This document shows, piece by piece, positions 9,401 to 64,000 of a stretch of DNA of 64,000 nucleotides. The stretch lies in contig CAYUAQ010000001.1 in the NCBI GenBank assembly GCA_964442705.1, positions 14,976 through 78,975 of the forward strand, in the 5' to 3' direction. Both the position numbers and the translations under genes were made by a program. Numbering within the stretch: the stretch's first letter is position 1; each line of letters begins with the position of its first letter. This DNA comes from an uncultured Desulfobacteraceae bacterium. GTDB lineage: Bacteria > Desulfobacterota > Desulfobacteria > Desulfobacterales > JALSRD01. The notes below the pieces were generated by a model, which was not told where the DNA came from, did not search any database, and saw only the letters and a list, made by a program, of their open reading frames with translations.

Positions 9401-9404
9401 AGGC

Positions 9405-36587: not shown

Positions 36588-36609
36588 TCCTGAAAGAGGG
36601 AATCGTTTT

Positions 36610-37017: not shown

Positions 37018-37042
37018 AGTCAAAGTGAAAGGAAAGCATTCC

Positions 37043-37612
37043 ATGCAGATCATTTCCAAACTTGCCGGAGACGAACAGGGTTCCGCACTGATATTTGCCA
37101 TTCTTATCCTGGCGCTGCTGACCATTCTGGGAATCTCGTCGAGCAACACCAGCATTGTGGAAAGCATGATTTCCGGCAATGACACGCTGTCGAAAATGGC
37201 CTTTCAGCAGGCAGACGGCGGCACCCAGGCCGGCATCGAACTGCTGGAGCAGAACATAGAGAACCGGGGGTTCGACACCGGGGAGTTGTCCGCTATTCCC
37301 GGGATCACCGTGAACAACACCAACCTCTTTTTAAATACTTCCGCCAATGACCCTTCAGACGATGCCGACACCAGTCGGGATGCCTATATGCCCAAGGGCG
37401 GTGCTGTCAATCAACCGCACACCAACCTGACGTTCGGCGGGATTGCGGGCTTGTCCACGGGTTCGGCCATTCAGATGGCGGCCGGATACGAGGGCAAAGG
37501 CAAGTCCGCAGGCAACAGCGGGGCGTGGATCATCTATGATATCCGCTCGGCGCGCAAGGACGTGAAAAATGCCGAGGCAAAGGTCCGGGTCAGATGGCGG
37601 CACGTCATTTAA
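37043..37612 (+). CDS. pilX: PilX-like minor pilin (PilX N-terminal domain)
   Basis: EQGSALIFAILILALLTILGISSSNTSIVESMISGN. Start at ATG 37043 with an AAGGAAAG RBS. Confidence 0.6.
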   Translation: MQIISKLAGDEQGSALIFAILILALLTILGISSSNTSIVESMISGNDTLSKMAFQQADGGTQAGIELLEQNIENRGFDTGELSAIPGITVNNTNLFLNTSANDPSDDADTSRDAYMPKGGAVNQPHTNLTFGGIAGLSTGSAIQMAAGYEGKGKSAGNSGAWIIYDIRSARKDVKNAEAKVRVRWRHVI

Positions 37613-37646
37613 AACAGCATTAACCCCTCTAACCCCAGGTGATGAT

Positions 37647-37964
37647 ATGAAAATAAAAAAGGCTCTGTTAACAGTATTTATCCTTGTCGTCATGTTCATT
37701 TCAGGCAGTATCAGTCAGGCCGGAAGCTACTGGCAGACGGGTCGCGTGACAAAGTCGGCCTGGCACGACAGGTACTGGTACGTTGAAATCAATACCGTAA
37801 AGTATACCCTCATGCCCGAGGTGAGCGTACTGGTGCCCTCGGAGAGAAAATTGTATCGGGGCGGCACGGATCGTTTTCGGCCTTCGTCGTATCTGAGCTA
37901 CGGCAGGAAGTTGATGGTCAAGATTGAAGGCCGCAGAATCTATGAGATTATCGTATCTAAATAG
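37647..37964 (+). CDS. Small secreted protein of unknown function (105 aa) inside the pilus operon
   Basis: Signal peptide MKIKKALLTVFILVVMFISGSISQA. No known motif. Confidence 0.5.
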   Translation: MKIKKALLTVFILVVMFISGSISQAGSYWQTGRVTKSAWHDRYWYVEINTVKYTLMPEVSVLVPSERKLYRGGTDRFRPSSYLSYGRKLMVKIEGRRIYEIIVSK

Positions 37965-37974
37965 GGGTGCAGAC

Positions 37975-40900
37975 ATGTTGAAAAAATCGATGATACTACT
38001 GATATTGATGTCCCTGGTGTGTGTCGGCGGGCTGAACAGCAGTGCCCGGGCTGAAAACATGGGAGACTACAGCCTGCTGCCGCCTTTTGTCACCGCCGGC
38101 GTGCCCCCCTTGGTCATGCTGGTTATCGGACGAAACCACAAACTTTACTACGAAGCTTACAACGATGCCTCTGATCTGAATGACGACGGCATTCTGGATG
38201 TCGGCTACAATCCGTCAATAGACTACTACGGGTACTTCGATTCCCACAAAGAGTATGTTTACAGCACCGCCAACCATCGCTTCGAACCGGTGGCGGTCAC
38301 CTTCGACAAAAAGGTGAGCGCTGGCGGCCGCTGGAGCGGGGATTTTCTCAACTACCTGACCATGTCCCGCATGGACGCCCTGCGCAAGGTGCTGTATGGC
38401 GGCTACCGCTCGACGGACACGGACTCGGAAACCGTTCTGGAGCGGGTCTATATTCCCCAGGACGCCCACAGCTGGGGCAAGGAATACGAGAGCGTTTCCC
38501 GCGACGGGTATGATATCAGCGAGTACACGCCCCTCGATCTTCCCCTAGACGGCTACCGGCACCTGTTTGCTTCCACGACCTTATCCGAAAACGGTGATCC
38601 GGTTTTAAGGGTCATGCCCAACAGCATTCACCGCATCTGGGAGTGGGTTTCCAAGGAACGGCCGGTGTGCGACAACTCGCTGGTGTCCAGCGGGGGCAAT
38701 TACAACAGTTATCCTAGCGACCACGATGCCTATGAAGACCTGGTTTTGCAGTTCGCCAACGCCGGCCACCTTCAGGGGACCCAGCCGGTGGACAATATCG
38801 ACGGCAGCGGAAACCCGTTTGGCTCGGACGAATACTATCTCACCATTTTTACGGGAAAGATCAACATTGCCACGGCCGGGACCTACGAGTTTGCCGTGGA
38901 CGGCGACGACGCCGTCGAGGTGATCATCGACGGCACCGTGGTGGCCGGGTGGTACGACGGACACGGCAGGTGCAGTTGCCATGATCACAGCGGTAGTATC
39001 GTCCTGGACGCCGGGGAATATGACATCGAATTCAGGCACCAGGAAACCACCGGCGGCGACTATTACCACCTGTGGTGGAAGGGGCCTGACAGCGACAGCC
39101 ATGACTGGGAGATCGTTCCCAAGGACGCATTTTCGGGTTTGACGCAAACCGTTTACAACGTGTCAACGCCCGTTTCCACCATCACCGACTATCAGGTGCG
39201 CGTACTGGTGGGAAAGCCGGACATGCCGGAGTCCAACTGCAAGCTTTACCCCAACGGCAACTACAAGCCGGTGGGGATTCTGCAGCGCTACGGCGAATCC
39301 GACCGCATGTACTTCGGCCTCATCACGGGCTCCTATGCCAAGAACACCTCCGGTGGTGTACTGCGCAAAAACATTTCATCCATCACCGATGAGATCGATC
39401 CCAACACGGGACAGTTTACCAGTGTCAACGGTATCATCGCCACGCTGGACAAGTTTCGGATCTACGACTTCAATTACGGCGACTATTCATACCGTCCCGG
39501 ATGGGAAGATGCCTGGGTGACCACCAGGCCCATGAACGAGGGTGAGTTCCCGGACTGGGGCAACCCCATTGCCGAGATGCTGTACGAAGGCATGCGCTAC
39601 TTTGCCGGCAAGGCCAGCCCCACCGGTGATTTTGTATACGGCAGCGGCACACCGGACGAAACCCTGGGACTGCCCCTGGCAAACTGGAACGACCCCTATG
39701 ACACGGCCAACGGCGGCTTCAGCTACTGTGCCAAGCCGTTTATTCTGATGATCAGCGACATCAACCCCACCTACGACTCGGATCAGCTGCCGGGGGTGGA
39801 CGGCAATTTCGGGTCGTTCAGCGGCGACATGTCCGGTATGAATGTTTCGGACCTGGCCAATACCATCTCGGGCAATGAGGGCATCGCGGGCTACCATTAC
39901 ATCGGCCAGGTGGGCAGCGATTATGATGGATCTCCCCGTCCGAAGCTCGTCAGCGGCTTCGGCAACATCCGGGGGCTGTGCCCCGAAGAGCCCACCAAGC
40001 AGGGCAGCTACTACTCGGCCAGCGTTGCCTACTACGGCCGCAAGACCGATTTGAACAGCGCCACGGAAGACCAGAAGGTGAGTACCTATGCGGTGGGGCT
40101 GGCCTCGCCGCTGCCCAGGATCACCATTCCGGTGGGCGACCAGACCATTACCCTGGTGCCCTTCGCCAAATCCGTGGGCGGATGCCTGGGCATCAGCGGC
40201 GCCCAGGGCGACTTCCAGGCTACCAATACGATTGTCGATTTTTATATCGAGGAAATTACGCCTACCCAAGGCGTTTTCAGGATCAACTTCGAAGACGTGG
40301 AACAGGCCGCCGACCATGACATGGATGCCATTGTAAAATACGAATACACGGTCAATGCCGACGGCACGGTCACGATTACGTTGACTTCCACATACGCCTC
40401 CGGCTGTATCATCCAGCACCTCGGTTACGTGATTTCCGGCACCACCGAGGACGGCACCTACCTGGAGGTAACGGACGCAGACACCGCCGTCGGCAGCGAT
40501 GTGGATTATTTCCTGGACACGCCGCCGGGCCAGAGTCCGGGCGGCACTTGGGCAGATGGTGCGGATCTCCCCATGACGACCAGCCGGACTTTTACACCGG
40601 GGGCCACCACCACCGCAACCCTGCTGAAAAACCCGCTCTGGTATGCCGCCAAGTGGGGCGGGTTCCAGGAATCACCGGACGACCAGAACGATCTGCCGGA
40701 CCAGGACGAGGAGTGGGACAAAGACGGCGACGGCGTTCCCGACACCTACTTTTACGTCACCAACCCATTGCGGCTGGAGGAACAGCTCAACAAGTCCTTT
40801 GCCGATATTCTGAGCCGGACTTCCTCCGGTACGGCCGCATCGGTCATCTCCAGTTCCCGGTCCGGTGAAGGCGCGGTTTACCAGTCCGTGTTTTTTCCCG

Positions 40901-43356
40901 AAATCAAGGATGCCCTGGGAAACAGCGTCAACTGGATCGGCGATGTGCATGCCCTGCTGGTCGATGCCTATGGAAACATGAGAGAGGACAGCAATGGCAA
41001 CCGAACCCTGGATCTTGTCAATGATCTGATCATCAAATTCGACGGTGAGACGGTATACAAATACCGGGACACCAACGGCAACGGCTTGCTGGATGCCTCT
41101 GAGACCACTTCCATCTTCAGCGGAAAATTGAGCGACATCAAGTTCCTGTGGAGCGCCGCCGGTTGGCTGAACAGCATTGCCGACACGGATGTTGTCAACA
41201 ACCGTGCAAGTTACAACAGCTTCGCCGACCACAACCGGTATATCTTTACGTTCATCGACAGCAACCAGGATATGATTGCCGATTCGGGTGAGATCGTCGA
41301 TTTCCTGGCGGGCAACGAGAGCCTCATCAATCCTTACCTGAGCCTGTATCCTCCCTTTGAAACACGTCCGTCTTTTGTGCCCGATCCGGCTGATGCAGCC
41401 GCCTACAGTGATTTCATCAGCCAGCAGTCCCAACGGGAAATCAATTTTATCAGAGGACAGGATCAGGACATCTTCAACTCAAGCACCACCCCGGTCTATA
41501 CCATACCGAAATTCCGCAACCGACAAATCGACTTCGAGGGCACCGGGACGGCGGTTACCTGGAGACTGGGGGACGTCGTCTATTCCACCCCCACGGTGGT
41601 GGGCACACCGGCTGAAAACTTCGACCTTTTGTATGGAGACCTGTCCTATCTGGCGTTTCATAAAAAATATCGTCGCCGCCGTCAGGTAGTCTATGTGGGG
41701 TCCAACGACGGCATGCTGCATGCCTTCAACGCCGGCTATTTTGATCAGCAGAACAATAAGTTCTGGCGGTCATACAATGCCGGCAGCGGTACTTACGGTG
41801 ACACCGGCGCCCAGCTCGGTGCGGAGCTGTGGGCCTATGTCCCCTACAACCTGTTGCCCCATCTCTACTGGCTGACTTCGCCGGCCTACAACGGCGAAAT
41901 GCACGTCAGTTATGTGGGGCACAAGCCGAGGATATTCGATGCCAAGGTGTTTGCCGATGACAGCATCCACCCGGGCGGATGGGGTACGGTGCTTGTCTGC
42001 GGCATGAAGTTCGGCGGCGGAAAGATTCGTGCCGATGTGGATAAGAACAACGTCTACGACCCCGATACCGACCGAACCATGACGTCTGCCTTTATCGTCA
42101 TGGATATCACGGATCCCGAAAGCGGGCCCAAAGTCATTGCCGAACTGACATTTCCCAACCTTGGTTTTACGACTTGTTATCCCAATGTGGTTGTGATGAA
42201 AGACAAGGATTCCGCCAACGACGACAATGACTGGTACCTTGTGCTGGGGTCCGGCCCCATTGGTCCCGACGGGGCCGACACGGCATCCCTGACGACGGCC
42301 ACCAGTGTTCAGAAGGCCAAAATCTACATGGTAGACCTCAAGAAACTGTGTCGCGACGGATACGTTTATGCCCTGGATAATAATTCCAATGCCGCTGAAA
42401 ATGATCCCTGGTTTGTCGAACTGGATGACGATTCTTTCATCTCCGACCCCATCAGCGTCGATTACGATCTGGACTATAAATCCGACGTTGTCTACTTCGG
42501 GACGGTGTCCGGTGACTACACTGCCGGGTGGGGGGGGAAATTGAGAAGAATCGTCATGGATGATGACACCAGCACGGCCAGCTGGGACAGCGACAGCGTA
42601 CTGATAGACTTGACTGACGCCATTGATAATGGCGGCGTAACCCAGGGGCAGCCCATCGTGGCCGCTCCGGCGGCGGGCATGGACAATAATGGCTACCGCT
42701 GGGTGTTTTTCGGCACGGGCCGCTTTTTTAACCGCCTGGATGTCACCGACCCGACCACGTTTGACCAGCAGAGCTTTTATGGCATTAAAGAACCACAGGA
42801 TAGCGATGGGAATCCGACCTGGGGAACGGTCCTGAGGGCAAGTTTGCTGGATGTCAGCAACGCTGAAGTGTTCGAAGGCGGAGAGACTGTCTCGGGTGTG
42901 AGCGGCGCAGCTACCTTCGATGAATTGATCACCAAGGTGGAAAGCAAATCCGGGTGGCTGCTGGATTTCCCCCAGAGTATGGAGAGAAATCTCGGTCAGG
43001 CAGCCCTGCTGGGGGATGTCCTGCTGTTTACGAGCTATATTCCCGGCAACGATCCCTGTTCTTTTGAAGGTAACAGCAACCTGTACTCCCTGTATTACGA
43101 GACCGGCACCGCTTACAAGGAATCCGTCATAGGGGTAAACCAGAACAATTCCGTTACCGAAGATGGTGAAATAAAATATGAAGTCGTAAAACGCATAGAG
43201 CTGGGACAGGGGCTTGCCATGACACCCAACCTACACACCGGCAGGGAAGTCGGATCCAAAGGCCTGGTACAGACCAGTAAGGGTGCCATCCTGGACATCG
43301 AGCAGAAGAACCCGGGGGTAACCAAAAGCGGGCTGACCACCTGGCTGGAGGAATGA
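37975..43356 (+). CDS. pilY1: Giant PilY1-like pilus tip-associated protein with an inserted PA14 domain
   Basis: 1793 aa. Signal peptide. PilY1-type N-terminus (PPLVMLVIGRNHKLYYEAYND). PA14-like segment (FTGKINIATAGTYEFAVDGDDAVEVIIDG...DIEFRHQE..GGDYYHLWW, about 38.75-39.13 kb). C-terminal PilY1 propeller-like region (VYVGSNDGMLHAFNAG, VYFGT..GG). Confidence 0.8.
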   Translation: MLKKSMILLILMSLVCVGGLNSSARAENMGDYSLLPPFVTAGVPPLVMLVIGRNHKLYYEAYNDASDLNDDGILDVGYNPSIDYYGYFDSHKEYVYSTANHRFEPVAVTFDKKVSAGGRWSGDFLNYLTMSRMDALRKVLYGGYRSTDTDSETVLERVYIPQDAHSWGKEYESVSRDGYDISEYTPLDLPLDGYRHLFASTTLSENGDPVLRVMPNSIHRIWEWVSKERPVCDNSLVSSGGNYNSYPSDHDAYEDLVLQFANAGHLQGTQPVDNIDGSGNPFGSDEYYLTIFTGKINIATAGTYEFAVDGDDAVEVIIDGTVVAGWYDGHGRCSCHDHSGSIVLDAGEYDIEFRHQETTGGDYYHLWWKGPDSDSHDWEIVPKDAFSGLTQTVYNVSTPVSTITDYQVRVLVGKPDMPESNCKLYPNGNYKPVGILQRYGESDRMYFGLITGSYAKNTSGGVLRKNISSITDEIDPNTGQFTSVNGIIATLDKFRIYDFNYGDYSYRPGWEDAWVTTRPMNEGEFPDWGNPIAEMLYEGMRYFAGKASPTGDFVYGSGTPDETLGLPLANWNDPYDTANGGFSYCAKPFILMISDINPTYDSDQLPGVDGNFGSFSGDMSGMNVSDLANTISGNEGIAGYHYIGQVGSDYDGSPRPKLVSGFGNIRGLCPEEPTKQGSYYSASVAYYGRKTDLNSATEDQKVSTYAVGLASPLPRITIPVGDQTITLVPFAKSVGGCLGISGAQGDFQATNTIVDFYIEEITPTQGVFRINFEDVEQAADHDMDAIVKYEYTVNADGTVTITLTSTYASGCIIQHLGYVISGTTEDGTYLEVTDADTAVGSDVDYFLDTPPGQSPGGTWADGADLPMTTSRTFTPGATTTATLLKNPLWYAAKWGGFQESPDDQNDLPDQDEEWDKDGDGVPDTYFYVTNPLRLEEQLNKSFADILSRTSSGTAASVISSSRSGEGAVYQSVFFPEIKDALGNSVNWIGDVHALLVDAYGNMREDSNGNRTLDLVNDLIIKFDGETVYKYRDTNGNGLLDASETTSIFSGKLSDIKFLWSAAGWLNSIADTDVVNNRASYNSFADHNRYIFTFIDSNQDMIADSGEIVDFLAGNESLINPYLSLYPPFETRPSFVPDPADAAAYSDFISQQSQREINFIRGQDQDIFNSSTTPVYTIPKFRNRQIDFEGTGTAVTWRLGDVVYSTPTVVGTPAENFDLLYGDLSYLAFHKKYRRRRQVVYVGSNDGMLHAFNAGYFDQQNNKFWRSYNAGSGTYGDTGAQLGAELWAYVPYNLLPHLYWLTSPAYNGEMHVSYVGHKPRIFDAKVFADDSIHPGGWGTVLVCGMKFGGGKIRADVDKNNVYDPDTDRTMTSAFIVMDITDPESGPKVIAELTFPNLGFTTCYPNVVVMKDKDSANDDNDWYLVLGSGPIGPDGADTASLTTATSVQKAKIYMVDLKKLCRDGYVYALDNNSNAAENDPWFVELDDDSFISDPISVDYDLDYKSDVVYFGTVSGDYTAGWGGKLRRIVMDDDTSTASWDSDSVLIDLTDAIDNGGVTQGQPIVAAPAAGMDNNGYRWVFFGTGRFFNRLDVTDPTTFDQQSFYGIKEPQDSDGNPTWGTVLRASLLDVSNAEVFEGGETVSGVSGAATFDELITKVESKSGWLLDFPQSMERNLGQAALLGDVLLFTSYIPGNDPCSFEGNSNLYSLYYETGTAYKESVIGVNQNNSVTEDGEIKYEVVKRIELGQGLAMTPNLHTGREVGSKGLVQTSKGAILDIEQKNPGVTKSGLTTWLEE

Positions 43357-43496
43357 GTCTGAAACGCCAGTCCTGACGCTCCCGAAAAGGATCGGCGGCT
43401 GGCTGGAATGCCCCTTGGGCTCAAGACGGAGACAGAATAACCGATACTGAAAACAGAGGCTGAAACTCCGGTGTCCAAGAAAACTACGAGACTGTC

Positions 43497-44120
43497 ATGA
43501 AGGAGGGCGATGACGTGAAACCTGGATGCATGCGTAATTGGATGTTGCTGCTGCTGGCAGTTGTGATTGTCGGTTTGCTGCTGCCCGGCGGCACATGGGC
43601 AAAGGTATACAGATTTGTGGACGAGGATGGAATCGTTCATTTCACCGACAATGCGTTGCAGGTTCCCATGGACCAGCGTCTGCCGCTTGAGGAGGCTCCT
43701 CTGCAGACAGAGGAAAAATCAGCCGTCCGTCCTCCGTCGCCGCCCTCACCCGACGGGCAAAACATGCGGGGTGTGCGCCAGAAGAGAGAAGCCCTGAAAA
43801 AACAGCAGACCAGCATGAATACGCGCTTCGCACAGCTGAACCGGCAGAAGAAGCGGCTCGATGCCGAACTGGAAGCCATCAACCAGGAACGGCAACAGTT
43901 GGAGAAAGAAAGCGTCGTCAAGCATTCCAAACGATCATACCGCATTTACAAGCAGAAAGTAGAACGGCTGGATGCCCGCATCAAAGCCTATAATGATCGG
44001 CGACAGGCGTTCAACAAGCAGGTCGAAGCCTACAATGAAAAAATGCGGCAGTTTGAGGAGCAGCGTCGGCGGTTAAACGCCGCCATCGATGCCTTTGACC
44101 AGGCCAAAATGGAAGACTGA
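43497..44120 (+). CDS. DUF4124-like secreted coiled-coil protein
   Basis: Signal/TM segment (WMLLLLAVVIVGLLLPGGTWA), then KVYRFVDEDGIVHFTDN (DUF4124 pattern) and a long K/E/Q/R-rich coiled coil. Confidence 0.6.
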   Translation: MKEGDDVKPGCMRNWMLLLLAVVIVGLLLPGGTWAKVYRFVDEDGIVHFTDNALQVPMDQRLPLEEAPLQTEEKSAVRPPSPPSPDGQNMRGVRQKREALKKQQTSMNTRFAQLNRQKKRLDAELEAINQERQQLEKESVVKHSKRSYRIYKQKVERLDARIKAYNDRRQAFNKQVEAYNEKMRQFEEQRRRLNAAIDAFDQAKMED

Positions 44121-44123
44121 CCA

Positions 44124-45965
44124 TTGACTGCCACGGCCAGAGCCGTCCAAGATGCGGTTGCCCGGGATGGATACGGGCAATCCAAAGACCCCTTTTCACC
44201 CCGCGCTGTTTGCGAAACATTGCTGGAGCAGGGTCTCGTCAGCCGGGATCAGGTCCGCGATATCCTGTCGCGCGAGAAGATGCTGTTGAAGCGTCTGCAG
44301 GGTTTGCGAGCCAAGGGAAATGGTGGCGGAGAAGTAAACTTCGTCGACGTGCTGGTGCCCCTCAATCTGAAACGGGCCGATGACCGTTTTGCCGTGCTGG
44401 ACGAAGACGCCGTCTACCGGGCATTGGCCAGCACATGGGGGGTGCCGTTTAAAAAGATCGACCCTTTGAAACTCGATCTCAACGTGGTCACCAGTACCAT
44501 CCCCCGCAACTTCGCCATGAAGCACCAGGTGCTTCCCATAGCCGTGCAGGACCGCCGTCTCACGGTGGCCACGCCCAATCCCTTCAACAGCGAAATTTTC
44601 GAAGACATCGAGCGGGTCAGCCGCCTGAAGGTCCAAACGGTGGTCAGCCCCAAAGGCGATATCGTCAAGCTGATCGACGAATTTTTTGGCTTCAAATGCT
44701 CCATAGCGGCTGCCGAAAACCAGTTTGCCGGCCCCTCCGTGGATCTGGGCAACCTGGAGCAGTACGTGCGTCTGCAGACCATGGATGAGCTGCCATCCAC
44801 GGATCAACACGTTGTCAATGCCGTCAACCATCTGTTTCTGTACGCTTTCGAACAGCGGGCCAGTGATATTCACATCGAGCCCAAACGCGACACCAGCTTG
44901 GTGCGCCTGAGGATAGACGGCGTGCTGCACACCGTTTACACGCTCCCCAAGAACGTCCATTCGGCCATTGTCAGCCGCATCAAGAACCTGTCGCGACTGG
45001 ACATGGCCGAGAAGCGGCGTCCTCAGGATGGCCGCATCAAGACGGACAAAGACGGGGTGGAGGTGGAAATCCGTGTGTCCACGGTGCCGGTGGCCTTTGG
45101 TGAAAAAGTGGTCATGCGCATCATGGACCCGGACATTCTCTTCCAGGATCTGCAGAACCTGGGATTTTCCGACTATGATCTGGAGCGCTACAATAAATTT
45201 GTTGACTTCCCCCACGGCATTCTGCTGGTGTGTGGTCCTACCGGGAGCGGCAAATCGACCACCTTGTACTCCACCCTGAGGCAGCTGTCTTCCCCGCAGA
45301 TCAACATCACGACGGTGGAAGATCCCATCGAGATGATACACGAGGAGTTCAACCAGATTGCGGTCCAGCCGGCCGTGGACGTCACTTTTTCGACGATTCT
45401 GCGAAACATTCTGCGGCAGGACCCTGACGTGATCATGATCGGCGAACTCAGGGATCTGGATACCGCCGAAAATGCGGTTCAAGCCGCCCTGACCGGCCAT
45501 CTGGTGCTCTCCACGCTGCACACCAACGATGCGCCTTCCTCCATCATACGGCTGCTGGATCTGGGGGTTCCCTATTTCCTAATCCAAGCGTCGTTGATCG
45601 GCATCATGGGCCAACGGCTGGTACGAAGAATCTGCCGCAACTGCGTCGAAGAGTTTCAGTTGGATGCGGCCGAGCTGCGGGAAAAGGGGATTTCCCTGGA
45701 TAAAGAGGGGGCCGTCAAGCTTTTCCGGGGCAAGGGGTGCCAGAAATGCCGCGGAACCGGTTATCTGGGCAGGACCGGTATTTTCGAAGTCCTTCCTTAC
45801 AGTGACAAGATCAAAAAGCTCACCACGGAAGATGCCAACCTGGAAGAAATCCGCCGGCAGGCGGCAGCCGAGGGGTTGATTACTCTGCGGCAGAACGCCA
45901 TTCAAAAACTGCTGGCAGGGGAAACCACCTACCAGGAAGTCTTGCGGGTTACCTGGGAAGAATAG
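44124..45965 (+). CDS. pilB: Type II/IV secretion family ATPase (PilB/GspE)
   Basis: ASDIHIEP, Walker A GPTGSGKSTTLY, Asp box/Walker B (DPDVIMIGELRD), His box (TGHLVLSTLHTN), and a tetracysteine motif (CRNC...CQKCRGTGY). TTG start 4 nt after the upstream stop. Confidence 0.85.
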   Translation: MTATARAVQDAVARDGYGQSKDPFSPRAVCETLLEQGLVSRDQVRDILSREKMLLKRLQGLRAKGNGGGEVNFVDVLVPLNLKRADDRFAVLDEDAVYRALASTWGVPFKKIDPLKLDLNVVTSTIPRNFAMKHQVLPIAVQDRRLTVATPNPFNSEIFEDIERVSRLKVQTVVSPKGDIVKLIDEFFGFKCSIAAAENQFAGPSVDLGNLEQYVRLQTMDELPSTDQHVVNAVNHLFLYAFEQRASDIHIEPKRDTSLVRLRIDGVLHTVYTLPKNVHSAIVSRIKNLSRLDMAEKRRPQDGRIKTDKDGVEVEIRVSTVPVAFGEKVVMRIMDPDILFQDLQNLGFSDYDLERYNKFVDFPHGILLVCGPTGSGKSTTLYSTLRQLSSPQINITTVEDPIEMIHEEFNQIAVQPAVDVTFSTILRNILRQDPDVIMIGELRDLDTAENAVQAALTGHLVLSTLHTNDAPSSIIRLLDLGVPYFLIQASLIGIMGQRLVRRICRNCVEEFQLDAAELREKGISLDKEGAVKLFRGKGCQKCRGTGYLGRTGIFEVLPYSDKIKKLTTEDANLEEIRRQAAAEGLITLRQNAIQKLLAGETTYQEVLRVTWEE

Positions 45966-53754: not shown

Positions 53755-53852
53755 TGGCGGAAGTGCATGGGAATCGAACCCACCCGGGACGGTTTTAGCG
53801 CCCCACACCGGATTTGAAGTCCGGGAGCCCCACCAGTGAGCTGCGCACTTCC
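53755..53852 (-). tRNA. selC: tRNA-Sec (anticodon UCA)
   Basis: The reverse complement reads GGAAGTGCGCAGCTCACTGGTGGGGCTCCCGGACTTCAAATCCGGTGTGGGGCGCTAAAACCGTCCCGGGTGGGTTCGATTCCCATGCACTTCCGCCA. It has an 8-bp acceptor stem, anticodon loop CUUCAAA, a long variable arm, a T-loop GGTTCGATTCC and an encoded CCA. It is closely parallel to E. coli selC as recalled. Confidence 0.9.
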
Positions 53853-54525: not shown

Positions 54526-55170
54526 TTGAGCACAAAGCAACTGGCTGAAAAAAAAACTAAAATTAAGAAAAAAAGCGCCTGGCGTGAAAACATCGAGGCC
54601 ATTGCCATTGCGGTGGTGCTGGCCCTTTTCATTCGCGCCTTTGTCGTCCAGGCCTTTAAAATCCCCTCCGGTTCCATGAAAGACACCCTTCTGATCGGAG
54701 ACCACATCCTGGTCAATAAGTTCATCTACGGCATTAAAATGCCCTTCAGCAACGCCACTCTCATTTCCGTCAAGAATCCGCAGCGGGGCGACATCATGGT
54801 TTTTAAATTCCCGGAGGATCCCGAGAAGGATTTCATCAAACGGGTGATTGGCGTGGAGGGGGACGTGGTGGAGGTTCGCCAGAAAAAGGTTTTCGTCAAC
54901 CACAAGGAACTCGACGAACCCTACGCCAAACACACCGATCCACGCATCATTCCGGCGTGGATTCAGCCGCGGGACAATTTCGGGCCGGTGACCGTTCCCA
55001 AAGACAGCCTTTTCGTCATGGGAGACAACCGTGACCACAGCTACGACAGCCGCTTCTGGGGATTCGTCAAGCTCGATGCCGTCAGAGGCAAGGCCTTTAT
55101 CATCTACTGGTCATGGGTCGACGACACCTTCGGCGTTCGCTGGGGGCGTATCGGTCACTTGCTGCATTAA
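54526..55170 (+). CDS. lepB: Signal peptidase I
   Basis: IPSGSMKDTLLIGDHILVNKF, RGDIMVFKFP, KRVIGVEGD, GDNRDHSYDSRFWGFV. Confidence 0.92.
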   Translation: MSTKQLAEKKTKIKKKSAWRENIEAIAIAVVLALFIRAFVVQAFKIPSGSMKDTLLIGDHILVNKFIYGIKMPFSNATLISVKNPQRGDIMVFKFPEDPEKDFIKRVIGVEGDVVEVRQKKVFVNHKELDEPYAKHTDPRIIPAWIQPRDNFGPVTVPKDSLFVMGDNRDHSYDSRFWGFVKLDAVRGKAFIIYWSWVDDTFGVRWGRIGHLLH

Positions 55171-55171
55171 A

Positions 55172-56486
55172 ATGAAAATGGTAATCAAAAACGCCCGCAT
55201 TCTGGATCCCGGCAAGCGGGACACAACGGGAGATATCTGGATCAGCGACGGCATTGTCACTGAACTGGGGCGCGGTGCCTCTGCCCTGAACGGAAAAGCC
55301 GACCGTGTCATCGATGCTTCGGGATGCACCGCCGTTCCCGGGTTGATCGACATGCATGTGCATTTCAGAGAGCCGGGTCAGGAGCACAAGGAAACCATCG
55401 CCAGCGGCTGCCGGGCGGCGGCCAGAGGCGGTTTTACAGCGGTGTGCCCCATGCCCAACACCGAGCCGCCCAATGATTCCCCTGAAATCATGCAGCTGAT
55501 TCTGGGCAAAGCGTCCCAGGCCAACGGGGTGCGGGTTTTGCCGGTGGCCGCCATCACGCGGGGTCTCGGGGGAAAGACCCTTACTGACTTTTCCGCCCTC
55601 AAAACCTGTGGCGCGGTGGCCGTCTCCGACGACGGCCATCCGGTGGTGAGCGGTTCAGTGATGCAGCAGGCGATGGAGGCAGCCCGTGAGCAAGACCTGC
55701 TGGTGATCTCCCACAGCGAAGACCTGTCGTTTTCAGCCGGCGGCCACATGAATGCGGGCACGGTTTCCCGCCGGCTGGGCTATGCCGGCATACCCAGTGC
55801 CGCCGAGTATGTAATGGTGGCCCGTGACATTGCCCTGTGTGAAATGACGGGCGCGCGGTTGCACATCGCCCACGTCAGTACCCGACAGTCCGTGCTGGCC
55901 ATCCGCAAGGCCAAAGACAGGGGGCTTCCGGTGAGTGCCGAGACCGCCCCCCATTACCTGTTTTTGACCGACCATACCGTGGAAGCACTGGGAGCCGCCG
56001 CCAAGATGAACCCGCCCCTGCGGACTCCCGCCGATCAGCGGGCGCTTCGGGAGGGACTGGTCGACGGTACTATCGACGCCATCGCTACCGATCATGCCCC
56101 TCACAGCCCGGAAGAGAAAAACATGCCTTTTGAGCAGGCCCCCAACGGCGTCATTGGTCTGGAAACATCCCTGGGGCTGGGTCTCAAGCTGGTGGAAGAG
56201 GGCGTACTGGACATGGACCAGCTGGTGGCTAAAATGTCGCTAAACCCGGCCCGGCTCCTGGGAATCGATCATCATCTGACGCCGGGCCGGCCGGCCGACC
56301 TTACGCTCATCGATCCGGCCGCTTCCTGGAAAGTACGTCCGGAGCTGTTTGCCTCCCGCAGCCGCAACACGCCTTTTGCCGGATGGGAGCTTCCGGGCCG
56401 GGCCGTGCTCACCATGGCCGGCGGCCGTGTGGTTCACGATGATTTGATCAGGAATGAAGCCCCTCACAGTGGAACGGACGGACAGC

Positions 56487-56494
<8 letters not shown>
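55172..56494 (+). CDS. pyrC: Dihydroorotase
   Basis: PGLIDMHVHFREPGQEHKETI, GGFTAV, HIAHVST, TDHAPHS. Start at MKMVIKN, 1 nt after the lepB stop. Confidence 0.9.
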
Positions 56495-57887
<1,393 letters not shown>

Positions 57888-58131: not shown

Positions 58132-58147
58132 TGGCATGTGGCTTGCT
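58132..58147 (+). promoter_or_regulatory. Sigma-54 promoter of pilA
   Basis: TGGCAT-GTGGC-TTGCT with exact GG-N10-GC spacing, about 128 nt upstream of the pilA ATG. Confidence 0.75.
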
Positions 58148-58274
58148 ATATCTCTGTGCAAACGATGAAAAATTAAAGAAATCTGGTGAAAGGGGGGATA
58201 ATTAAAAAGAGTTCAGAGAAAGTTCGGGAGACAACAAACCAACACCATTTCATTATTCAAAGGAGATAAACGCA

Positions 58275-58700
58275 ATGCTGAGCAAACTGAGGACAAACAA
58301 ATCCGGTTTCACCCTGATCGAACTGATGATCGTCATCGCCATCATCGGCATTCTGGCGGCCATCGCCCTGCCCAACTACATTTCATACAGGAACAAAGCC
58401 TATTGTTCCAGCGCGGAAAACGACGCCGACACGATTCTGTCCACGCTTTCCGACTACTATGCCATTCCGTCTCATACGGCCATGATCACCGGCAACGTTG
58501 GCCCTGCCGCGACCACACTTAACGGTGTGGCGTTCAAAGCGCTGTCCAACGGGAATACCGCTGTGCTCAGCAATCCCGCTGGCGATACTCTTCGTGTGGT
58601 GGTAACTGACGTCAGTGGTAGATGTCCTTCTGATTACCGGACATCGCAGTCCCTGGCAGGCTGGAGCACTACTGCCAACACCTTCCAGAAAGACATGTAG
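58275..58700 (+). CDS. pilA: Type IVa major pilin
   Basis: [11 protein letters not shown]|[42 protein letters not shown]. Ser/Thr-rich C-terminal half with a Cys pair. Confidence 0.9.
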
Positions 58701-58752
58701 CAGGAAAAGTTGCTTGCTCACTTTTAATGTAAGCCGATTAAACACGTGAACT

Positions 58753-58788
58753 TAGGAGGGGATGGCCAAGTCCATCCCCTCCTGAATT
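58753..58788 (+). terminator. Strong hairpin terminator after pilA
   Basis: AGGAGGGGATGG-CCAAGT-CCATCCCCTCCT, a 12-bp perfect stem, then GAATTTG. Confidence 0.6.
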
Positions 58789-58840
58789 TGTCATGCATTT
58801 ATGCTGAAAGAAAATTCTTCGGCGCAACCGGCTGGCGAAA

Positions 58841-60874
58841 ATGAAGGCGTTCACTGACTCAGCACACGGAGAAAGGCTTTCAGACGATAAGCTGAAAATC
58901 GTCATCTGTGTACTCTTGGCCATCGTCACCTTTTCTGTCTACCAGCAGGTGAGCAGCCACGATTTCATCAATTTCGATGATGATATTTATATAACCAAAA
59001 ACCCCAGAGTAGCCCAGGGGCTCACCTGGGACAATGTGGTCTGGGCATTCCGCACGACCTATTTCGGTAACTGGCATCCGTTGACATGGGTGTCCTATTT
59101 TATAGACGCACAGCTTTTCGGGGTCAACGCCTCGGCCTTCCTACTGGTCAACGTCTTCATTCATATCGGCACGACGCTGCTTCTGTTCTTGTTTCTCAGC
59201 AAGGCCACTGCATGTCCGTGGCGTAGCGCGTTCGTGGCAGCCCTTTTTGCCCTGCATCCCCTGCATGTCGAGTCTGTAGCCTGGGCATCTGAACGCAAAG
59301 ACGTCCTGTGCGCTTTTTTCTGGATGCTCACCATGGGGGCCTACTTCAGCTATGCCAGGGCCCCCACATATGCCAGATACCTGCGGATGCTTTTTTGCTT
59401 TCTCCTGGGCATGATGGCCAAACCGATGATGGTGACGCTGCCTTTTGTGCTGCTGCTCATGGATTACTGGCCACTGAAAAGGCTGAGTTTAACAGGCTTG
59501 CCTGAAGGGATTGGCAGGGCCTTGATGCCGCTGGAAAATCAGGCCTCTGCATCCAAGGCAGGCTTTAGTAAATCAGCGGCGGCCTTGGTCAAAGAAAAAA
59601 TCCCCCTGTTTATAATCGTGGCTGCATCCGGAGTGGTCACGTTTGTGGTGCAGCAGAACAGCGGAGCTGTGGCACCCCTTGAGATCATCCCCACCGGCTT
59701 CAGAACAGCCAATGCGCTGGTATCATACTTTTCTTATTTGATACGCATGTTCTGGCCGCACAACCTGTCCGTTTTCTATCCCTATCCTGAAACGATTCCC
59801 TGGTGGAAGATTGCCTCCGCCGTCGCCACCCTGTTGACCGTAAGTTATCTGACCATAAGATATGCACCTAGATATCCTTACCTGCTGGTAGGATGGCTTT
59901 GGTATCTGGGGACATTGGTACCCGTTATAGGGTTCCTACAGGTGGGTTTGCAGGCTATGGCCGATCGATACACTTACATTCCGATGATCGGCCTGTTTAT
60001 AATGTTGGTGTGGTTCGCCTTTGACATGACGGCTTCAAAACCGCTTCGGCAAATGACGATGTGTCTGGTTGCAACCACGTCTATACTGGTGCTTGTCGTT
60101 TTGAGCACACGGCAAATCGGTTATTGGAAAAACAGCTTTACGATTTTCAAACATGCCCTTGAAACGACTCCAGCGAGTGCCACGACGCTCAACAATTATG
60201 GGCTAGCCTTGATCGCCAGAGGGCGGTTGGTTGAAGCCAGTGAGCTTTTTAGGACCGCTATCCGGCTGGAACCTCAAAGAGCGCAGTCTTATGTGAATCT
60301 GGGCTTGTCCTTCTCTGAACAGGGACGACTGGAGAAAGCTCTTTTATACTTCAAAGAGGCCCATCGCCTCGATCCCAGCGATCCGATAGCTGTAAAGAAT
60401 TATAAAAGAACTGCAAAGATACTCGATGAGAGGCTTGGTACCATTGCTGCTCTTGAACAGCAGTTGCCTGAAGAACCGGAGAATGTCGCGCTTCTGATCA
60501 GAATTGGCACTCTTTATCAGAATATCTACAAATTACAAAGGGCTATTACTTGCTTTCGCACCGTACTGAGCATTGATGCCGCTAATGTGGAAGCACGCAA
60601 CGCGCTGGCTGCGGCTTATGCCATGCAGGGAAATTACGAAGAAGCAGAGGCTCAGTTCAAACGGGCCCTTGAAACCCAGCCCAAAAGAAGCGAGACCTAT
60701 TATCTGTTGGCTGGTCTGTATGGGCGTCAGAAAAGAACAGCGCTTTCGATGGAGTGGCTGCGAAAAGCGATTAAAATGGGGTTCAAAGATTGGAAATATT
60801 TGAGAATAGATCCAAATTTCAGGCTCTTAAGACAGCATCCCGATTTTTATAAATTGATAAATCAGTCTTCGTGA
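58841..60874 (+). CDS. Polytopic membrane protein with PMT/TMTC-like (GT-C-type, DUF1736-like) N-terminal domain and C-terminal TPR repeats
   Basis: 677 aa. N-terminus FINFDDDIYITKNPRVAQGLTWDNVVWAFRTTYFGNWHPLTW, LHPLHVESVAWASERKDVL, KPMMVTLPFVLLLMDYWP, ADRYTYIP, with many TM helices. The C-terminus has TPR repeats (NNYGLALIARGRLVEASELFRTAIRLEP...). Confidence 0.75.
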   Translation: MKAFTDSAHGERLSDDKLKIVICVLLAIVTFSVYQQVSSHDFINFDDDIYITKNPRVAQGLTWDNVVWAFRTTYFGNWHPLTWVSYFIDAQLFGVNASAFLLVNVFIHIGTTLLLFLFLSKATACPWRSAFVAALFALHPLHVESVAWASERKDVLCAFFWMLTMGAYFSYARAPTYARYLRMLFCFLLGMMAKPMMVTLPFVLLLMDYWPLKRLSLTGLPEGIGRALMPLENQASASKAGFSKSAAALVKEKIPLFIIVAASGVVTFVVQQNSGAVAPLEIIPTGFRTANALVSYFSYLIRMFWPHNLSVFYPYPETIPWWKIASAVATLLTVSYLTIRYAPRYPYLLVGWLWYLGTLVPVIGFLQVGLQAMADRYTYIPMIGLFIMLVWFAFDMTASKPLRQMTMCLVATTSILVLVVLSTRQIGYWKNSFTIFKHALETTPASATTLNNYGLALIARGRLVEASELFRTAIRLEPQRAQSYVNLGLSFSEQGRLEKALLYFKEAHRLDPSDPIAVKNYKRTAKILDERLGTIAALEQQLPEEPENVALLIRIGTLYQNIYKLQRAITCFRTVLSIDAANVEARNALAAAYAMQGNYEEAEAQFKRALETQPKRSETYYLLAGLYGRQKRTALSMEWLRKAIKMGFKDWKYLRIDPNFRLLRQHPDFYKLINQSS

Positions 60875-60889
60875 AAGGGGCTGCATATC

Positions 60890-61711
60890 ATGTTTAAAGG
60901 TAAAAAAGTCATAGTTGTCATGCCTGCATACAATGCAGAAAAGACACTGAAAAAAACGTATGATGAGGTTATGGCGCAGGAAATAGTCGATGAGGTAATT
61001 ATCGTCGATGACGCCAGTATGGATAAAACCGTGGAAATCGGAAAAATGCTACCCAAGGCGATAGTCCACAGACATGATCAAAATCGCGGCTATGGCGCCA
61101 ATCAGAAAACGTGTTATAAACTAGCGCTCGAAATGGGTGCCGATATCGTAATCATGGTCCATCCCGACTACCAGTATACCCCCAAGCTGATTCCTGCCAT
61201 GGCCTCCATCATTGGAAACGATCTGTATCCCTGTGTATTGGGGTCCCGTATTTTAGGAGGTTATGCGCTGAAAGGCGGGATGCCGCGGTGGCGATATATA
61301 GCTAATCGTGGTTTGACCCTGATTGAAAATTTTCTCATGGGAGCAAAAATTTCCGAATTTCACAGTGGTTACCGGGCATTTTCGGGTAAACTGCTGGAGC
61401 AGCTGCCCTTGAAAGGCAATTCAGACGATTTTGTGTTTGATAATCAGATGCTTGCACAAATTCTCTGGTTCGGTTTCCCGATTGCAGAAGTCACTTGTCC
61501 ATCGAAATATTTCACCGAAGCTTCTTCAATCAATCTTATGAGAAGTATCGTATATGGATTCGGATGTATCTTTACGGCATTGCAATACAGACTGTCAAAG
61601 ATGAAGTTGCTGCAGTCAAACATTTTTCCGAAAATCTGTGCGGAAAAAACTGGCAATATAGGTACGCAGTATATTTTGAAGAATAGGCCGAATTTTTCTA
61701 GCGGTGAATAG
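60890..61711 (+). CDS. GT2-family glycosyltransferase (polyprenyl-phosphate sugar synthase/Dpm1-like)
   Basis: VIVVMPAYNAEKTL, IIVDDASMDKT, QNRGYGANQ, VHPDYQY. Confidence 0.8.
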   Translation: MFKGKKVIVVMPAYNAEKTLKKTYDEVMAQEIVDEVIIVDDASMDKTVEIGKMLPKAIVHRHDQNRGYGANQKTCYKLALEMGADIVIMVHPDYQYTPKLIPAMASIIGNDLYPCVLGSRILGGYALKGGMPRWRYIANRGLTLIENFLMGAKISEFHSGYRAFSGKLLEQLPLKGNSDDFVFDNQMLAQILWFGFPIAEVTCPSKYFTEASSINLMRSIVYGFGCIFTALQYRLSKMKLLQSNIFPKICAEKTGNIGTQYILKNRPNFSSGE

Positions 61712-61712
61712 C

Positions 61713-62486
61713 ATGAGCAATCGTTTCCAGCGCTTTTTCGAAGAGAACGCCTATGTAGCAGCCAAGAGATATATCTATAATTACCACATTCGCCGCAGAG
61801 CAGTAACCGCTCTTCTGAGGGGAGAGCACCATCGGCTTGTGCTTGAAATGGGGTGTGGCGTGGCGCCGGTAGTGCCCAATCATAAAGGTACGGTTTATGT
61901 GGATCTGTCATTTACAGCCGTTCAGTTGTTAAAAAAAGAGTCCGGGGCTGCCGGTTTTGTGGTTGCGGACGGGACGAATTTGCCGTTCAAGTCGCATGTG
62001 TTTTCCCATACGGTAACTTCTGAAGTACTGGAACATATTGAAGATGATGAAGGAGCCCTGAAAGAATTGGCAAGAGTCATGTCCCCTGGAGGGAAATTAG
62101 TTATCACCTTTCCACACAGAAAGTTTTATTTCGCGATAGATGACCGTTATGTTGAACATTTCCGTCGATACGAAATTGAAGAGATAAAGGCGAAATTGGA
62201 GAAATACGGATTAATAACGGTAGGAATTGGTAAGGTGCTGGGTCCATTGGAAAAAATCACTATGTGGACTGTGACTGGAGTGCTCTCATTTGTTCAAATA
62301 TTAAATATAGAAAGGAAAACAGGAAAAAAGCAGATAAAACCCCCCAATGCCGCTTTATTTAAGATAATAACGCCCATTTTTAAATGGGTTAATAAATACT
62401 ATGGGCAGTTAGCCCGTTTGGACGCAAAAATAGCGCCTATGGCACTGGCTACTGTCTTGGTGATAAAATCACAATTGCCGGATTGA
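61713..62486 (+). CDS. Class I SAM-dependent methyltransferase with a C-terminal hydrophobic tail
   Basis: VLEMGCGVAP (motif I), VVADGTNLPF, SEVLEHIEDD, MSPGGKLVITFP. ATG lies 2 nt after the GT2 stop. Confidence 0.75.
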   Translation: MSNRFQRFFEENAYVAAKRYIYNYHIRRRAVTALLRGEHHRLVLEMGCGVAPVVPNHKGTVYVDLSFTAVQLLKKESGAAGFVVADGTNLPFKSHVFSHTVTSEVLEHIEDDEGALKELARVMSPGGKLVITFPHRKFYFAIDDRYVEHFRRYEIEEIKAKLEKYGLITVGIGKVLGPLEKITMWTVTGVLSFVQILNIERKTGKKQIKPPNAALFKIITPIFKWVNKYYGQLARLDAKIAPMALATVLVIKSQLPD

Positions 62487-62615
62487 TCAAGGGTGTAATA
62501 AGCACTATCAGTTATTGCCCCTACCGCCTTTCCCCCTCTTATCGAAAGATTACATTGTCTTTTCTAAAAAATCAGGGTCGCCATTATAAATTTCATTTGC
62601 TGCCTAAGGCATAAT

Positions 62616-64000
62616 ATGAGTTATCCGGCACAAAAAACAAATGGATGGGCAAGGCCGCTGGAAATAAATAGTATCAAAACCAGGAAATCTCATCTCGGTT
62701 GGACGGATATCGCGATATGCACGCTTATAATTGTTACAACACTATCCGTCTATTTTCAGGTTAAGAATTTTGAATTCATAAGCTACGATACACCGGAATA
62801 TGTATATGAAAACAAATATGTCGCACAAGGGTTAAGTGCCGAGGGCATAAAATGGGCACTGACAACGACTTACATGAGCAACTGGCATCCGTTATCATGG
62901 CTGTCCCATATGCTGGATGTAACCCTGTTTGGACTAGAGCCCGGTTCTCATCACTTAATGAATGTTTTTATTCACTTATTAAATACATTTCTCCTTTATA
63001 TCATTTTCCTAAGAATGACGGGTAAGCAATTGCAAAGCGCAACGGTCGCAGCTTTGTTTGCGCTTCACCCACTCCATGTCCAATCTGTTGTTTGGGTCGC
63101 TGAACGAAAAGATTTGCTCAGCACCATGTTTTTCATGCTAACAGTAATTGCTTACTTAAACTACCTCAAAAATCACAGCTTAAAATGGTACTTGAGCGTT
63201 ATTTTGATATATATCCTGGGATTAGCGTGCAAGCCCATGATTGTTACACTGCCATTTGTTTTATGGTTGCTTGATTACTGGCCATTGAAAAGATACGGAT
63301 TTAAGCTGAATACGCCTGGCCGCAAAGTCGCGGCATATTCATTTGGGGATAAAATGCCCCTCTTGATGCTATCGGCTGCAAGTAGCGTAATTACCATAGT
63401 TGCTCAGCAATCTGGAGGGGCGATGGCGTCCCTCGGGGAAATAGGACTAAAAGCGAGATTGGTGAACGCTGTTTTTGGTTATACGATGTACCTGAGAAAG
63501 ATAATATGGCCTGACAATATTGCCATCGTCTATCCTTATCCGGAGCACCTATCCAGCTGGGCCATCGTTTACTCTTGTGTTTGCATCTTGGGGACGTCTA
63601 TGCTCTCATTTTGGTCCATTAAAAAAAGGCCATGGCTTGCAGTGGGATGGTTATGGTTTGTCGGGACCCTTGTACCGGTGATTGGAATAGTTCAAGTGGG
63701 AATGCAATCCATGGCCGATAGATACACCTATATTCCAGCGATTGGCATTTTTGTAATGGTCTCCTGGGGTATGATCGCTGTCATGGAAGAACATAGTTTT
63801 AATAATAAATGGATGTTCGCATTATTGATTATGCTTTTATTTGTTTACTCGTCAGTAACGTGGAAGCAAATCGGGTATTGGAGAAACAGCGAGACGCTTT
63901 TCCGACACACGATTGATGTGACAGAAAAAAACTATATCGCTCACAACAATCTTGGGTACGAGCTGTTAGAAAAAGGCGATTTGGACAATGCCATAAGACA
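62616..64000 (+). CDS. Second PMT/TMTC-like membrane protein (paralog of 58841..60874), 3'-truncated by the window edge
   Basis: The open frame from ATG 62616 runs to the window end. FISYDTPEYVYENKYVAQGLSAEGIKWALTTTYMSNWHPLSW, LHPLHVQSVVWVAERKDLL, KPMIVTLPFVLWLLDYWP and ADRYTYIP parallel the first copy. It is absent from the ORF track because no stop is reached. Confidence 0.75.
   Translation, partial: MSYPAQKTNGWARPLEINSIKTRKSHLGWTDIAICTLIIVTTLSVYFQVKNFEFISYDTPEYVYENKYVAQGLSAEGIKWALTTTYMSNWHPLSWLSHMLDVTLFGLEPGSHHLMNVFIHLLNTFLLYIIFLRMTGKQLQSATVAALFALHPLHVQSVVWVAERKDLLSTMFFMLTVIAYLNYLKNHSLKWYLSVILIYILGLACKPMIVTLPFVLWLLDYWPLKRYGFKLNTPGRKVAAYSFGDKMPLLMLSAASSVITIVAQQSGGAMASLGEIGLKARLVNAVFGYTMYLRKIIWPDNIAIVYPYPEHLSSWAIVYSCVCILGTSMLSFWSIKKRPWLAVGWLWFVGTLVPVIGIVQVGMQSMADRYTYIPAIGIFVMVSWGMIAVMEEHSFNNKWMFALLIMLLFVYSSVTWKQIGYWRNSETLFRHTIDVTEKNYIAHNNLGYELLEKGDLDNAIR

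Follow-up and report, generated by a model that had tools for sequence, protein, structure and literature searches.

What do the genes that follow pilA do at one end of a 64,000-nt stretch of DNA from an uncultured Desulfobacteraceae bacterium (GenBank assembly GCA_964442705.1, contig CAYUAQ010000001.1, positions 14,976 to 78,975 of the forward strand; hereafter, the window), and might the pilin itself be their substrate? pilA encodes the major type IVa pilin. Next come genes for a membrane protein with tetratricopeptide repeats (TPR), a family 2 glycosyltransferase (GT2), and a methyltransferase, and then a gene for another copy of the membrane protein. A first-pass annotation, made from the sequence alone, interpreted this arrangement as a candidate pilin O-glycosylation system. 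On balance, we lean towards the view that an envelope glycosylation cluster linked to pilA begins in this segment, that it operates by the lipid-carrier logic of the "three-component" systems, and that PilA is its likely acceptor. We will describe the predicted enzymes, then their linkage to pilA in other genomes, and then the other acceptors that these enzymes might have.

Predicted enzymes encoded after pilA

All of the genes from pilR through the second membrane protein are on the + strand, and each of the features that the first-pass annotation listed (the gene set, the sigma-54-type promoter, pilA, the hairpin, and the paralog) is present. pilA (58275..58700) encodes a 141-aa protein (N_methyl, E = 2.1e-10) with a prepilin leader, the sequence FTLIELM at the cleavage site, and two cysteines. 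Its best NCBIfam model is PilA from Myxococcus, with a score well under the model's cutoff, and its relatives at 52-78% identity carry the names Desulfobulbus, Desulforhopalus, and "Ca. Electr..."; going by these names, we would place the window in Desulfobulbales. The C-terminal half of the pilin had been described as Ser/Thr-rich; these residues are indeed enriched in the globular part, but only moderately (19 of 77 residues, or 24.7%).

The next gene begins 140 nt after the end of pilA, on the same strand, and encodes a 677-aa protein (58841..60874). Its membrane domain (aa 1-430) is followed by a TPR domain (aa ~430-677), with matches to TPR_1, TPR_2, and TPR_11 at aa 447-615 (E from 1e-22 to 1e-25). 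By sequence, the membrane domain did not match anything in the PDB, whether we used the single sequence or a 16-sequence profile. AlphaFold2 models of the protein had average confidence (pLDDT) of 86 and 81; the latter covers aa 1-433 (80.9, with a predicted TM-score of 0.84). Full-length fold searches and PDB sequence searches were swamped by TPR proteins, and the fold search was redone with the membrane domain alone. When this model was compared to the PDB with Foldseek, the hits at ranks 1-15 were all proteins with the GT-C fold (STT3, PglB, ArnT, Pmt4, and PIG-U; probability 0.94-1.0, TM-score for the query 0.30-0.45, E = 0.012-0.5), and Pmt1/2, AftA, and DPY19 were found at lower ranks. 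As predicted by the model, the membrane domain belongs to the GT-C fold, with an acidic motif in its first loop.

This motif, F42-x3-D46-D47, lies directly after the first transmembrane helix. The acidic residues that would be expected there in a GT-C enzyme are conserved: D46 and D47 are invariant in alignments of 48 and 52 homologs, and the corresponding DDX motif is D46-D47-D48. HPL (139-141), ERK (151-153), K194, and D375-R376-x-x-Y379 are also invariant across these 48-52 homologs. To judge from the alignments, the invariant polar residues are those expected of a GT-C active site.

The N-terminus had also been likened to protein O-mannosyltransferases (PMT) and to the DUF1736-type membrane domain of the eukaryotic TMTC proteins. 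The second comparison does not hold: DUF1736 (PF08409) has no match at E <= 10 in either copy from the window, nor at E <= 1 in 16 family members. As for PMT, the second copy matches PMT_2 (PF13231) at 22.9 bits, under the cutoff of 26.1, and the first copy has no match. Among 16 trimmed family members, 11 match PMT_2 (best E = 2.9e-10), and a match to PF13231 is precomputed for most database relatives.

The second paralog starts at 62616 and runs past the end of the window (64000). Over the membrane domain, it shares 43% identity with the first copy. Its first-loop motif is Asp-Thr instead of the Asp-Asp that is found in all 15 other aligned family members. The first Asp of this motif is reported to be common to all of the homologous sugar transferases (PMC7801869), and the second paralog retains it. 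Its ortholog is intact in L065 (60% identity; loci from other genomes are referred to by number) and decayed copies are found in L001 and L064. In L064, the region between pilA and the intact gene (7580-9861) contains decayed duplicates of the membrane/TPR gene, in three fragments, and of the first 75 codons of the GT2. We read these remnants as evidence of a tandem duplication of the module followed by decay.

The GT2 (60890..61711; PF00535, E = 1.1e-22) has no predicted transmembrane helices. Its best match among solved structures is the dolichyl phosphate mannose synthase from Pyrococcus furiosus (5mlz, E = 1e-8), and the alignment pairs up the D..Q that binds the metal; the match to ArnC is weaker (E = 9e-3). 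Its top NCBIfam models (AglJ, PpgS, Dol-P-hexose transferase, and PgfS) all describe polyprenyl-phosphate-sugar synthases, and all of the scores are under the equivalog cutoffs. The assignment of this protein as a polyprenyl-phosphate-sugar synthase type of enzyme is well supported by homology. The adjacent gene (61704..62486) encodes a putative class I S-adenosylmethionine-dependent methyltransferase (Methyltransf_11, E = 2.4e-15) with a single hydrophobic segment near its C-terminus (aa 236-254), and its position is kept in L001, L002, L064, and L065.

Linkage to pilA and a proposed pathway

We looked up related loci both from the GT-C/TPR protein and from the pilin. On the GT-C side, the four nearest homologs (P0002, P0003, P0005, and P0006; 58-71% identical in the membrane domain) are all encoded downstream of pilA, and each locus reads pilA-GT-C/TPR-GT2-methyltransferase (L001, L002, L064, and L065). 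The broader syntenic order is (lepB)-pilR-pilA-GT-C/TPR-GT2-methyltransferase-(second GT-C/TPR, intact or decayed), and the loci then continue with LPG_synthase_TM, a VKOR/DsbA fusion, a PMT-family GT-C protein, and a second GT2. The LPG_synthase_TM gene (PF03706) is found 3' of the cluster in all four of these loci; the corresponding region of our genome lies past the end of the window.

On the pilin side, we considered six loci whose pilins are 52-64% identical to PilA (L066-L071). Each of the six encodes, downstream and on the same strand, a GT-C candidate of the TPR type, a GT-C protein of the PMT type, or both. A membrane/TPR protein of ~700 aa is the next gene after pilA in four of them (L066 9771-11876, L067 9868-11637, L069 10506-12590, and L071 8646-10778), a PMT-family gene is downstream of pilA in four (L066, L068, L069, and L070), and the VKOR/DsbA fusion is present in five. 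These membrane/TPR proteins form a divergent lineage, often with two adjacent paralogs, in cable bacteria and their relatives; Pfam gave nothing on the membrane domain and they are annotated as "TPR protein" or "hypothetical." Nevertheless, this lineage is homologous to the window's family (hhalign probability 98.4%, E = 4.5e-15, 329 columns), and it carries the TMTC-like motifs HLDD, YRP, SKEN, and EHRNY.

Overall, adjacency to pilA is seen in 10 of 10 related loci as well as in the window. The strongest argument that the pilin is the acceptor, as we see it, is that different lineages of one enzyme type hold the position right after pilA, and that they do so beside a disulfide-forming enzyme, which a pilin with two cysteines would need. 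The pair of a VKOR/thioredoxin (DsbA) fusion and a PMT-family (PF02366) GT-C protein recurs downstream of pilA and is steadier than the GT-C/TPR genes themselves (L001 16809-19637, L002 14859-17758, L064 16900-19818, L065 7121-10118, L068 9604-13585, L069 12565-15389, and L070 8597-11487).

Upstream of pilA, we identified a sigma-54 -24/-12 promoter-like element of the form TGGCAT-N5-TTGCT (TGGCATGTGGCTTGCT; 58132-58147), which ends 127 nt before the ATG of pilA. This is the sole match to TGGCAY-N5-TTGCW in the 64-kb window, and 0.22 matches are expected by chance. By itself, such a match suggests a promoter with modest weight; it gains weight because it is positioned between pilR and pilA. 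pilR (56454..57887) appears to encode a sigma-54 enhancer-binding response regulator, and its orthologs in L001, L002, and L064 (73% identical) contain Response_reg, Sigma54_activat, and HTH_8 domains. Elements that resemble the sigma-54 site are also present upstream of pilA in L064 and L066. Downstream of pilA is a GC-rich hairpin (58752-58785, + strand) with a 14-bp stem and a folding free energy of -25.6 kcal/mol, followed by a weak T tract. Among the loci that we folded, a comparable hairpin lies 3' of pilA in L001, L002, L064, L065, L066, and L068. The hairpin is probably an attenuating terminator.

[quoted passage not shown] The two GT-C/TPR enzymes would then attach the sugar, by way of the DD site in the first periplasmic loop, to Ser/Thr residues on a periplasm-exposed protein, which the TPR domain would select. 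The fold and the motif point to this activity, and homology to the GT2 step; these two steps had been proposed in the first-pass annotation and are supported by our comparisons. Synteny and the precedent of TfpW (described below) suggest that the likeliest acceptor is PilA, whose globular domain is periplasmic before assembly. More speculatively, the methyltransferase might modify the sugar. As for expression, the sequence matches suggest that PilR and sigma-54 would drive pilA, and it is conceivable that the strong hairpin passes only part of the transcription into the glycosylation genes.

Possible acceptors other than the pilin

The family to which these enzymes belong is far larger than the set of pilA-linked loci. 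With sequences clustered at 50% identity, a search with the membrane domain alone gave 65,047 clusters at E <= 1e-3, and 16,483 at E <= 1e-30. Its members are named "TPR repeat protein" or "TadD/PilF" or, at JGI, "protein O-mannosyl-transferase." We looked at 61 distant loci (Verrucomicrobiota, Planctomycetota, Acidobacteriota, Desulfobacterota, and other phyla), most of which have 2-5 paralogs arrayed in tandem. A GT2 with 63-74% identity to that of the window flanks these arrays in 12 of the 61 loci, and a 13th locus (L013) has a copy at 48% identity. Because the GT2 is so similar across phyla and adjoins GT-C/TPR arrays, we take the two to be a conserved functional pair, which in most settings is not a pilin system. 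In 11 loci (L005, L011, L020, L024, L026, L028, L030, L032, L042, L054, and L062), a GT2 of ~245 aa at 63-74% identity heads 3-4 GT-C/TPR paralogs. The phyla with these GT2-headed arrays include Planctomycetota, Verrucomicrobiota, and Geobacterales, and this looks like an uncharacterised and very widespread module.

In a scan of contigs from representative genomes, no relative exceeded 49% identity, or 55% when fragmentary matches are counted. Searching a plasmid collection with tblastn gave nothing for either GT-C/TPR lineage, and there were no Pseudomonas entries among the best 120 relatives of either lineage. In the literature that we looked through, we found no experimentally characterised member of this bacterial GT-C/TPR family.

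Several of our results weigh against a dedicated pilin glycosylation system. First, the family is vast, only 2 of the 61 distant loci have a pilin-like open reading frame (ORF) within ~8 kb, and the arrays of paralogs suggest many acceptors or general ones. Linkage of a TPR-type or PMT-type GT-C gene to pilA is seen in all 10 of the related Desulfobulbales-type loci; near the distant members of the family, a pilin-like ORF is rare. Second, a strong hairpin stands between pilA and the genes of the cluster, and base composition shifts from pilA onward, so that their adjacency might reflect a hotspot for insertions. Third, some points concern the assignment of the enzymes. The Foldseek E-values are weak, even though the matches agree with each other; the membrane domain of the first copy has no significant match in Pfam, PMT_2 included; and the proline-rich motif of TfpW, YX6PFX7P (in periplasmic loop 4; implicated in chain polymerisation), was not matched in either copy from the window by a regular expression, even in loosened forms. 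(The YX6PFX7P expression also has no match in five divergent pilA-adjacent relatives.) Finally, the TPR domain is only presumed to be periplasmic, and since TPR domains also occur in proteins that secrete polysaccharides, the acceptor need not be a protein.

Some of these points fit a system for the general O-glycosylation of periplasmic or secreted proteins, which would act on other envelope acceptors and would lie beside pilA for historical reasons, as pilin loci collect surface-modification genes. We consider this somewhat unlikely, and it is the alternative that fares best. It would explain why arrays of GT2 and GT-C/TPR genes occur without a pilin gene in Verrucomicrobiota, Planctomycetota, Acidobacteriota, and other Desulfobacterota. 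Several specificities are also suggested by the presence of two paralogs and, in the syntenic loci, of a separate pair of PMT and GT2. The hairpin that divides the cluster from pilA and the cluster's atypical composition are further points in its favor. Against it, adjacency to pilA is kept in all of the related loci that we considered, even where the GT-C/TPR lineage is a divergent one. Furthermore, in the cable-bacterium locus L069, pilA, the TPR/GT-C gene, the VKOR/DsbA fusion, and the PMT gene form a compact unit with unrelated housekeeping genes on both sides.

The composition of the cluster is indeed unusual, and the first-pass annotation was right that the segment from ~58 kb is AT-richer. 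The GC content of the final six 1-kb windows is 0.39-0.53, as compared to 0.589 +/- 0.033 over the first 58 kb (z from -1.8 to -6.0). GC at third codon positions is 0.70-0.79 for lepB, a pyrC-like ORF, and pilR; it is intermediate for pilA (0.68); and it is 0.44-0.57 for the genes of the cluster. We considered a recent transfer from a sampled relative and rejected it, as the proteins of the cluster are no closer to those of lower-GC relatives (54-79% identity) than are the flanking LepB and PilR (67-73%). The cluster may have been acquired from a donor that is not among the sampled genomes, or these membrane and surface genes may have had a biased composition for a long time; our data fit either explanation.

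It is also conceivable, and in our view quite improbable, that the GT-C enzymes act on a non-protein acceptor such as lipid A or lipopolysaccharide, exopolysaccharide, or peptidoglycan, as ArnT or Gtr proteins do, with the TPR domain binding a secretion machine or a glycan. The closest fold matches include ArnT, and three-component systems classically modify O antigens (PMC11127046). The TPR domain also has a weak resemblance to models for PgaA, BcsC, and PrsT, far below their cutoffs, and three of the pilA-side loci (L067, L068, and L070) are continued by polysaccharide genes, namely GT4s and one Wzx-like Polysacc_synt gene. On the other hand, both of the characterised architectures that combine GT-C and TPR domains, TMTC1-4 and TfpW, act on proteins; the co-conservation with pilA and with the disulfide-forming VKOR/DsbA points to the maturation of a protein; and there are no polymerase or export genes for O antigen or exopolysaccharide in 58-64 kb. 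PilA remains our inferred acceptor.

Last and least, the membrane/TPR proteins might be non-catalytic factors for pilus assembly or stability, like the TPR lipoproteins PilF, PilW, and Tgl, with the GT2 and the methyltransferase as unrelated neighbors; this would fit the source annotations (TadD, PilF, or "TPR repeat protein"), the best NCBIfam match of the TPR domain (type IV pilus PilW, at 87.7 bits versus a cutoff of 154), and the loss of the second Asp of the DD motif in the second paralog, but those names derive from the TPR part only, the fold is GT-C, polar residues are invariant across 52 sequences at the positions that correspond to catalytic and donor-binding motifs of GT-C enzymes, and the family keeps close company with the GT2 over a wide range of genomes, so we rejected plain assembly factors as very improbable.

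Comparison with known systems

The closest precedent is TfpW from Pseudomonas aeruginosa strains that belong to group IV. [quoted passage not shown] The gene is the next one downstream of pilA, and O-glycosylation of pilin at Ser/Thr requires it (bioRxiv 10.1101/2020.04.19.049825). The first-pass annotation named TfpW, but it overlooked the combination of GT-C and TPR domains, and its statement that no such pilin-linked system had been described in bacteria is in part incorrect. Going by the published description of TfpW from Pseudomonas (para)aeruginosa Pa5196 and PA7, the 677-aa protein is likewise encoded right after pilA, is in the ~650-aa class, and has a predicted cytoplasmic N-terminus, a GT-C domain, DD(X) in the first loop, and a large C-terminal TPR domain. 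In contrast, the donor for TfpW is polyprenyl-P-D-arabinofuranose, which is made by DprE1/E2-type enzymes that are encoded elsewhere, whereas the window's cluster encodes its own Dpm1/GtrB-type GT2, along with a methyltransferase and two paralogs; we would expect a hexose-type donor. The window's protein is TfpW-like in architecture and position, but the missing proline-rich motif and the different donor pathway keep us from placing it in the TfpW family. A pilA-adjacent glycosylation enzyme with GT-C and TPR domains was already known, and the window would hold a TfpW-like variant of the three-component type.

Novelty is further reduced by a study of cable bacteria, which noted that in every clade of Ca. 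Electrothrix pilA is clustered with genes for TPR proteins, for a methyltransferase, and for a "phospholipid carrier-dependent glycosyltransferase" (PMC10580974). That study took the TPR proteins as interaction modules only and did not claim glycosylation. A review of bacterial O-glycoproteomics does not mention GT-C, TfpW, or PMT.

The eukaryotic TMTC1-4 (CAZy GT105) also have an N-terminal GT-C domain and C-terminal TPR repeats, which are non-cytoplasmic. As compared to the published motifs (PMC7801869), the 677-aa protein has the DD in the first loop, and it appears to share a Lys at the KE(T/Q)xxT position and (E/D)RxxY before the last helices. It differs in having NWHPL for SYRPL, AKPMxVT for KExxT (the Lys is kept and the Glu is lost), and DRYTY for ERxxY, in showing no evident counterpart of the DW motif, and in lacking DUF1736; also, the acceptors of TMTC are cadherin domains. 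The divergent pilA-adjacent lineage from cable bacteria keeps the TMTC-type YRP, KE, and EHRNY. Full-length prokaryotic homologs of TMTC, including one from a Deltaproteobacterium, had already been noted (PMC7801869).

In three-component systems, a GT2 and a GT-C protein carry out periplasmic glycosylation (PMC11127046). The co-encoding of a GT2 polyprenyl-P-sugar synthase with a GT-C protein is shared with GtrA/GtrB/GtrC, ArnC/ArnEF/ArnT, and the GT136 pentofuranose systems, but the targets there are O antigen or lipid A, and the GT-C proteins lack TPR repeats. We did not find a GtrA, SMR, or MATE flippase gene in 58-64 kb, and the LPG_synthase_TM candidate is found only in the syntenic relatives. 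The arrangement also resembles O-mannosylation in actinobacteria, where a GT2 (Ppm1) makes polyprenyl-P-mannose and a GT-C protein (Pmt, GT39) transfers it to Ser/Thr of exported proteins. Indeed, further downstream, the syntenic loci have a true PMT-family (PF02366) gene and a second GT2, as in that system. The window's enzymes differ in that they are not members of PF02366 and carry TPR repeats, and the host is a Gram-negative member of the Desulfobacterota. PglL/TfpO (PilO) glycosylate pilins as well, and tfpO is also directly after pilA, but they are of an unrelated fold and family and move oligosaccharides en bloc from undecaprenyl diphosphate instead of monosaccharide sugars from undecaprenyl phosphate. 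None of the five proteins has a match to Wzy_C. We set aside the cyanobacterial pilin glycosyltransferase Ogt as an analogue, as it is a cytoplasmic GT41.

A broader proposal would be that the bacterial TMTC-like GT-C/TPR family consists of widespread protein O-glycosyltransferases that are fed by one conserved Dpm1-like GT2, and that in Desulfobulbales their substrate is the major pilin, matured by the GT-C/TPR proteins together with VKOR/DsbA and PMT. We think that this is unlikely. If it were true, it would open a first route to the function of prokaryotic proteins that are related to the human TMTCs, which are O-mannosyltransferases whose architecture is homologous to that of this family, and the pilins of cable bacteria and their relatives would be glycoproteins. 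PilA is reported to be the most highly expressed protein in cable bacteria (PMC10580974), and the "TPR proteins" encoded beside it have so far been taken solely as protein-interaction modules. The conserved link to an abundant and easily purified pilin gives a large family of GT-C/TPR proteins a concrete candidate substrate that can be tested. Glycosylation of pilin alters the surface chemistry of the pilus, susceptibility to phage, adhesion, and assembly; one preprint describes it as a phage defence in Pseudomonas (bioRxiv 10.1101/150227).

The neighborhood of the cluster has a few other features. Between lepB and pilR, and overlapping the start of pilR, is the pyrC-like ORF (55031-56494), which by eye resembles an amidohydrolase or dihydroorotase; the syntenic loci L001 and L002 lack it, and pilR directly succeeds lepB there. 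A gene for the histidine kinase PilS is not adjacent to pilR in the window or in L001, L002, and L064; L066-L071 have a divergent pilS-pilR pair. Rfam and tRNA scans of the window gave a single RNA family match, a tRNA-Sec gene far upstream of the cluster (53755-53852, - strand; 76.1 bits in Rfam, with anticodon TCA from ARAGORN). Also upstream is a type IV pilus operon (35256-45965), with three minor-pilin-like ORFs that have prepilin motifs (35256-35819, 35856-36587, and 36658-37017), a 1810-aa PilY1-like protein (37924-43356), and a PilB/MshE-type ATPase (44124-45965). The GC content of the window dips to 0.515-0.56 at 35-38 kb, in the region of this operon.

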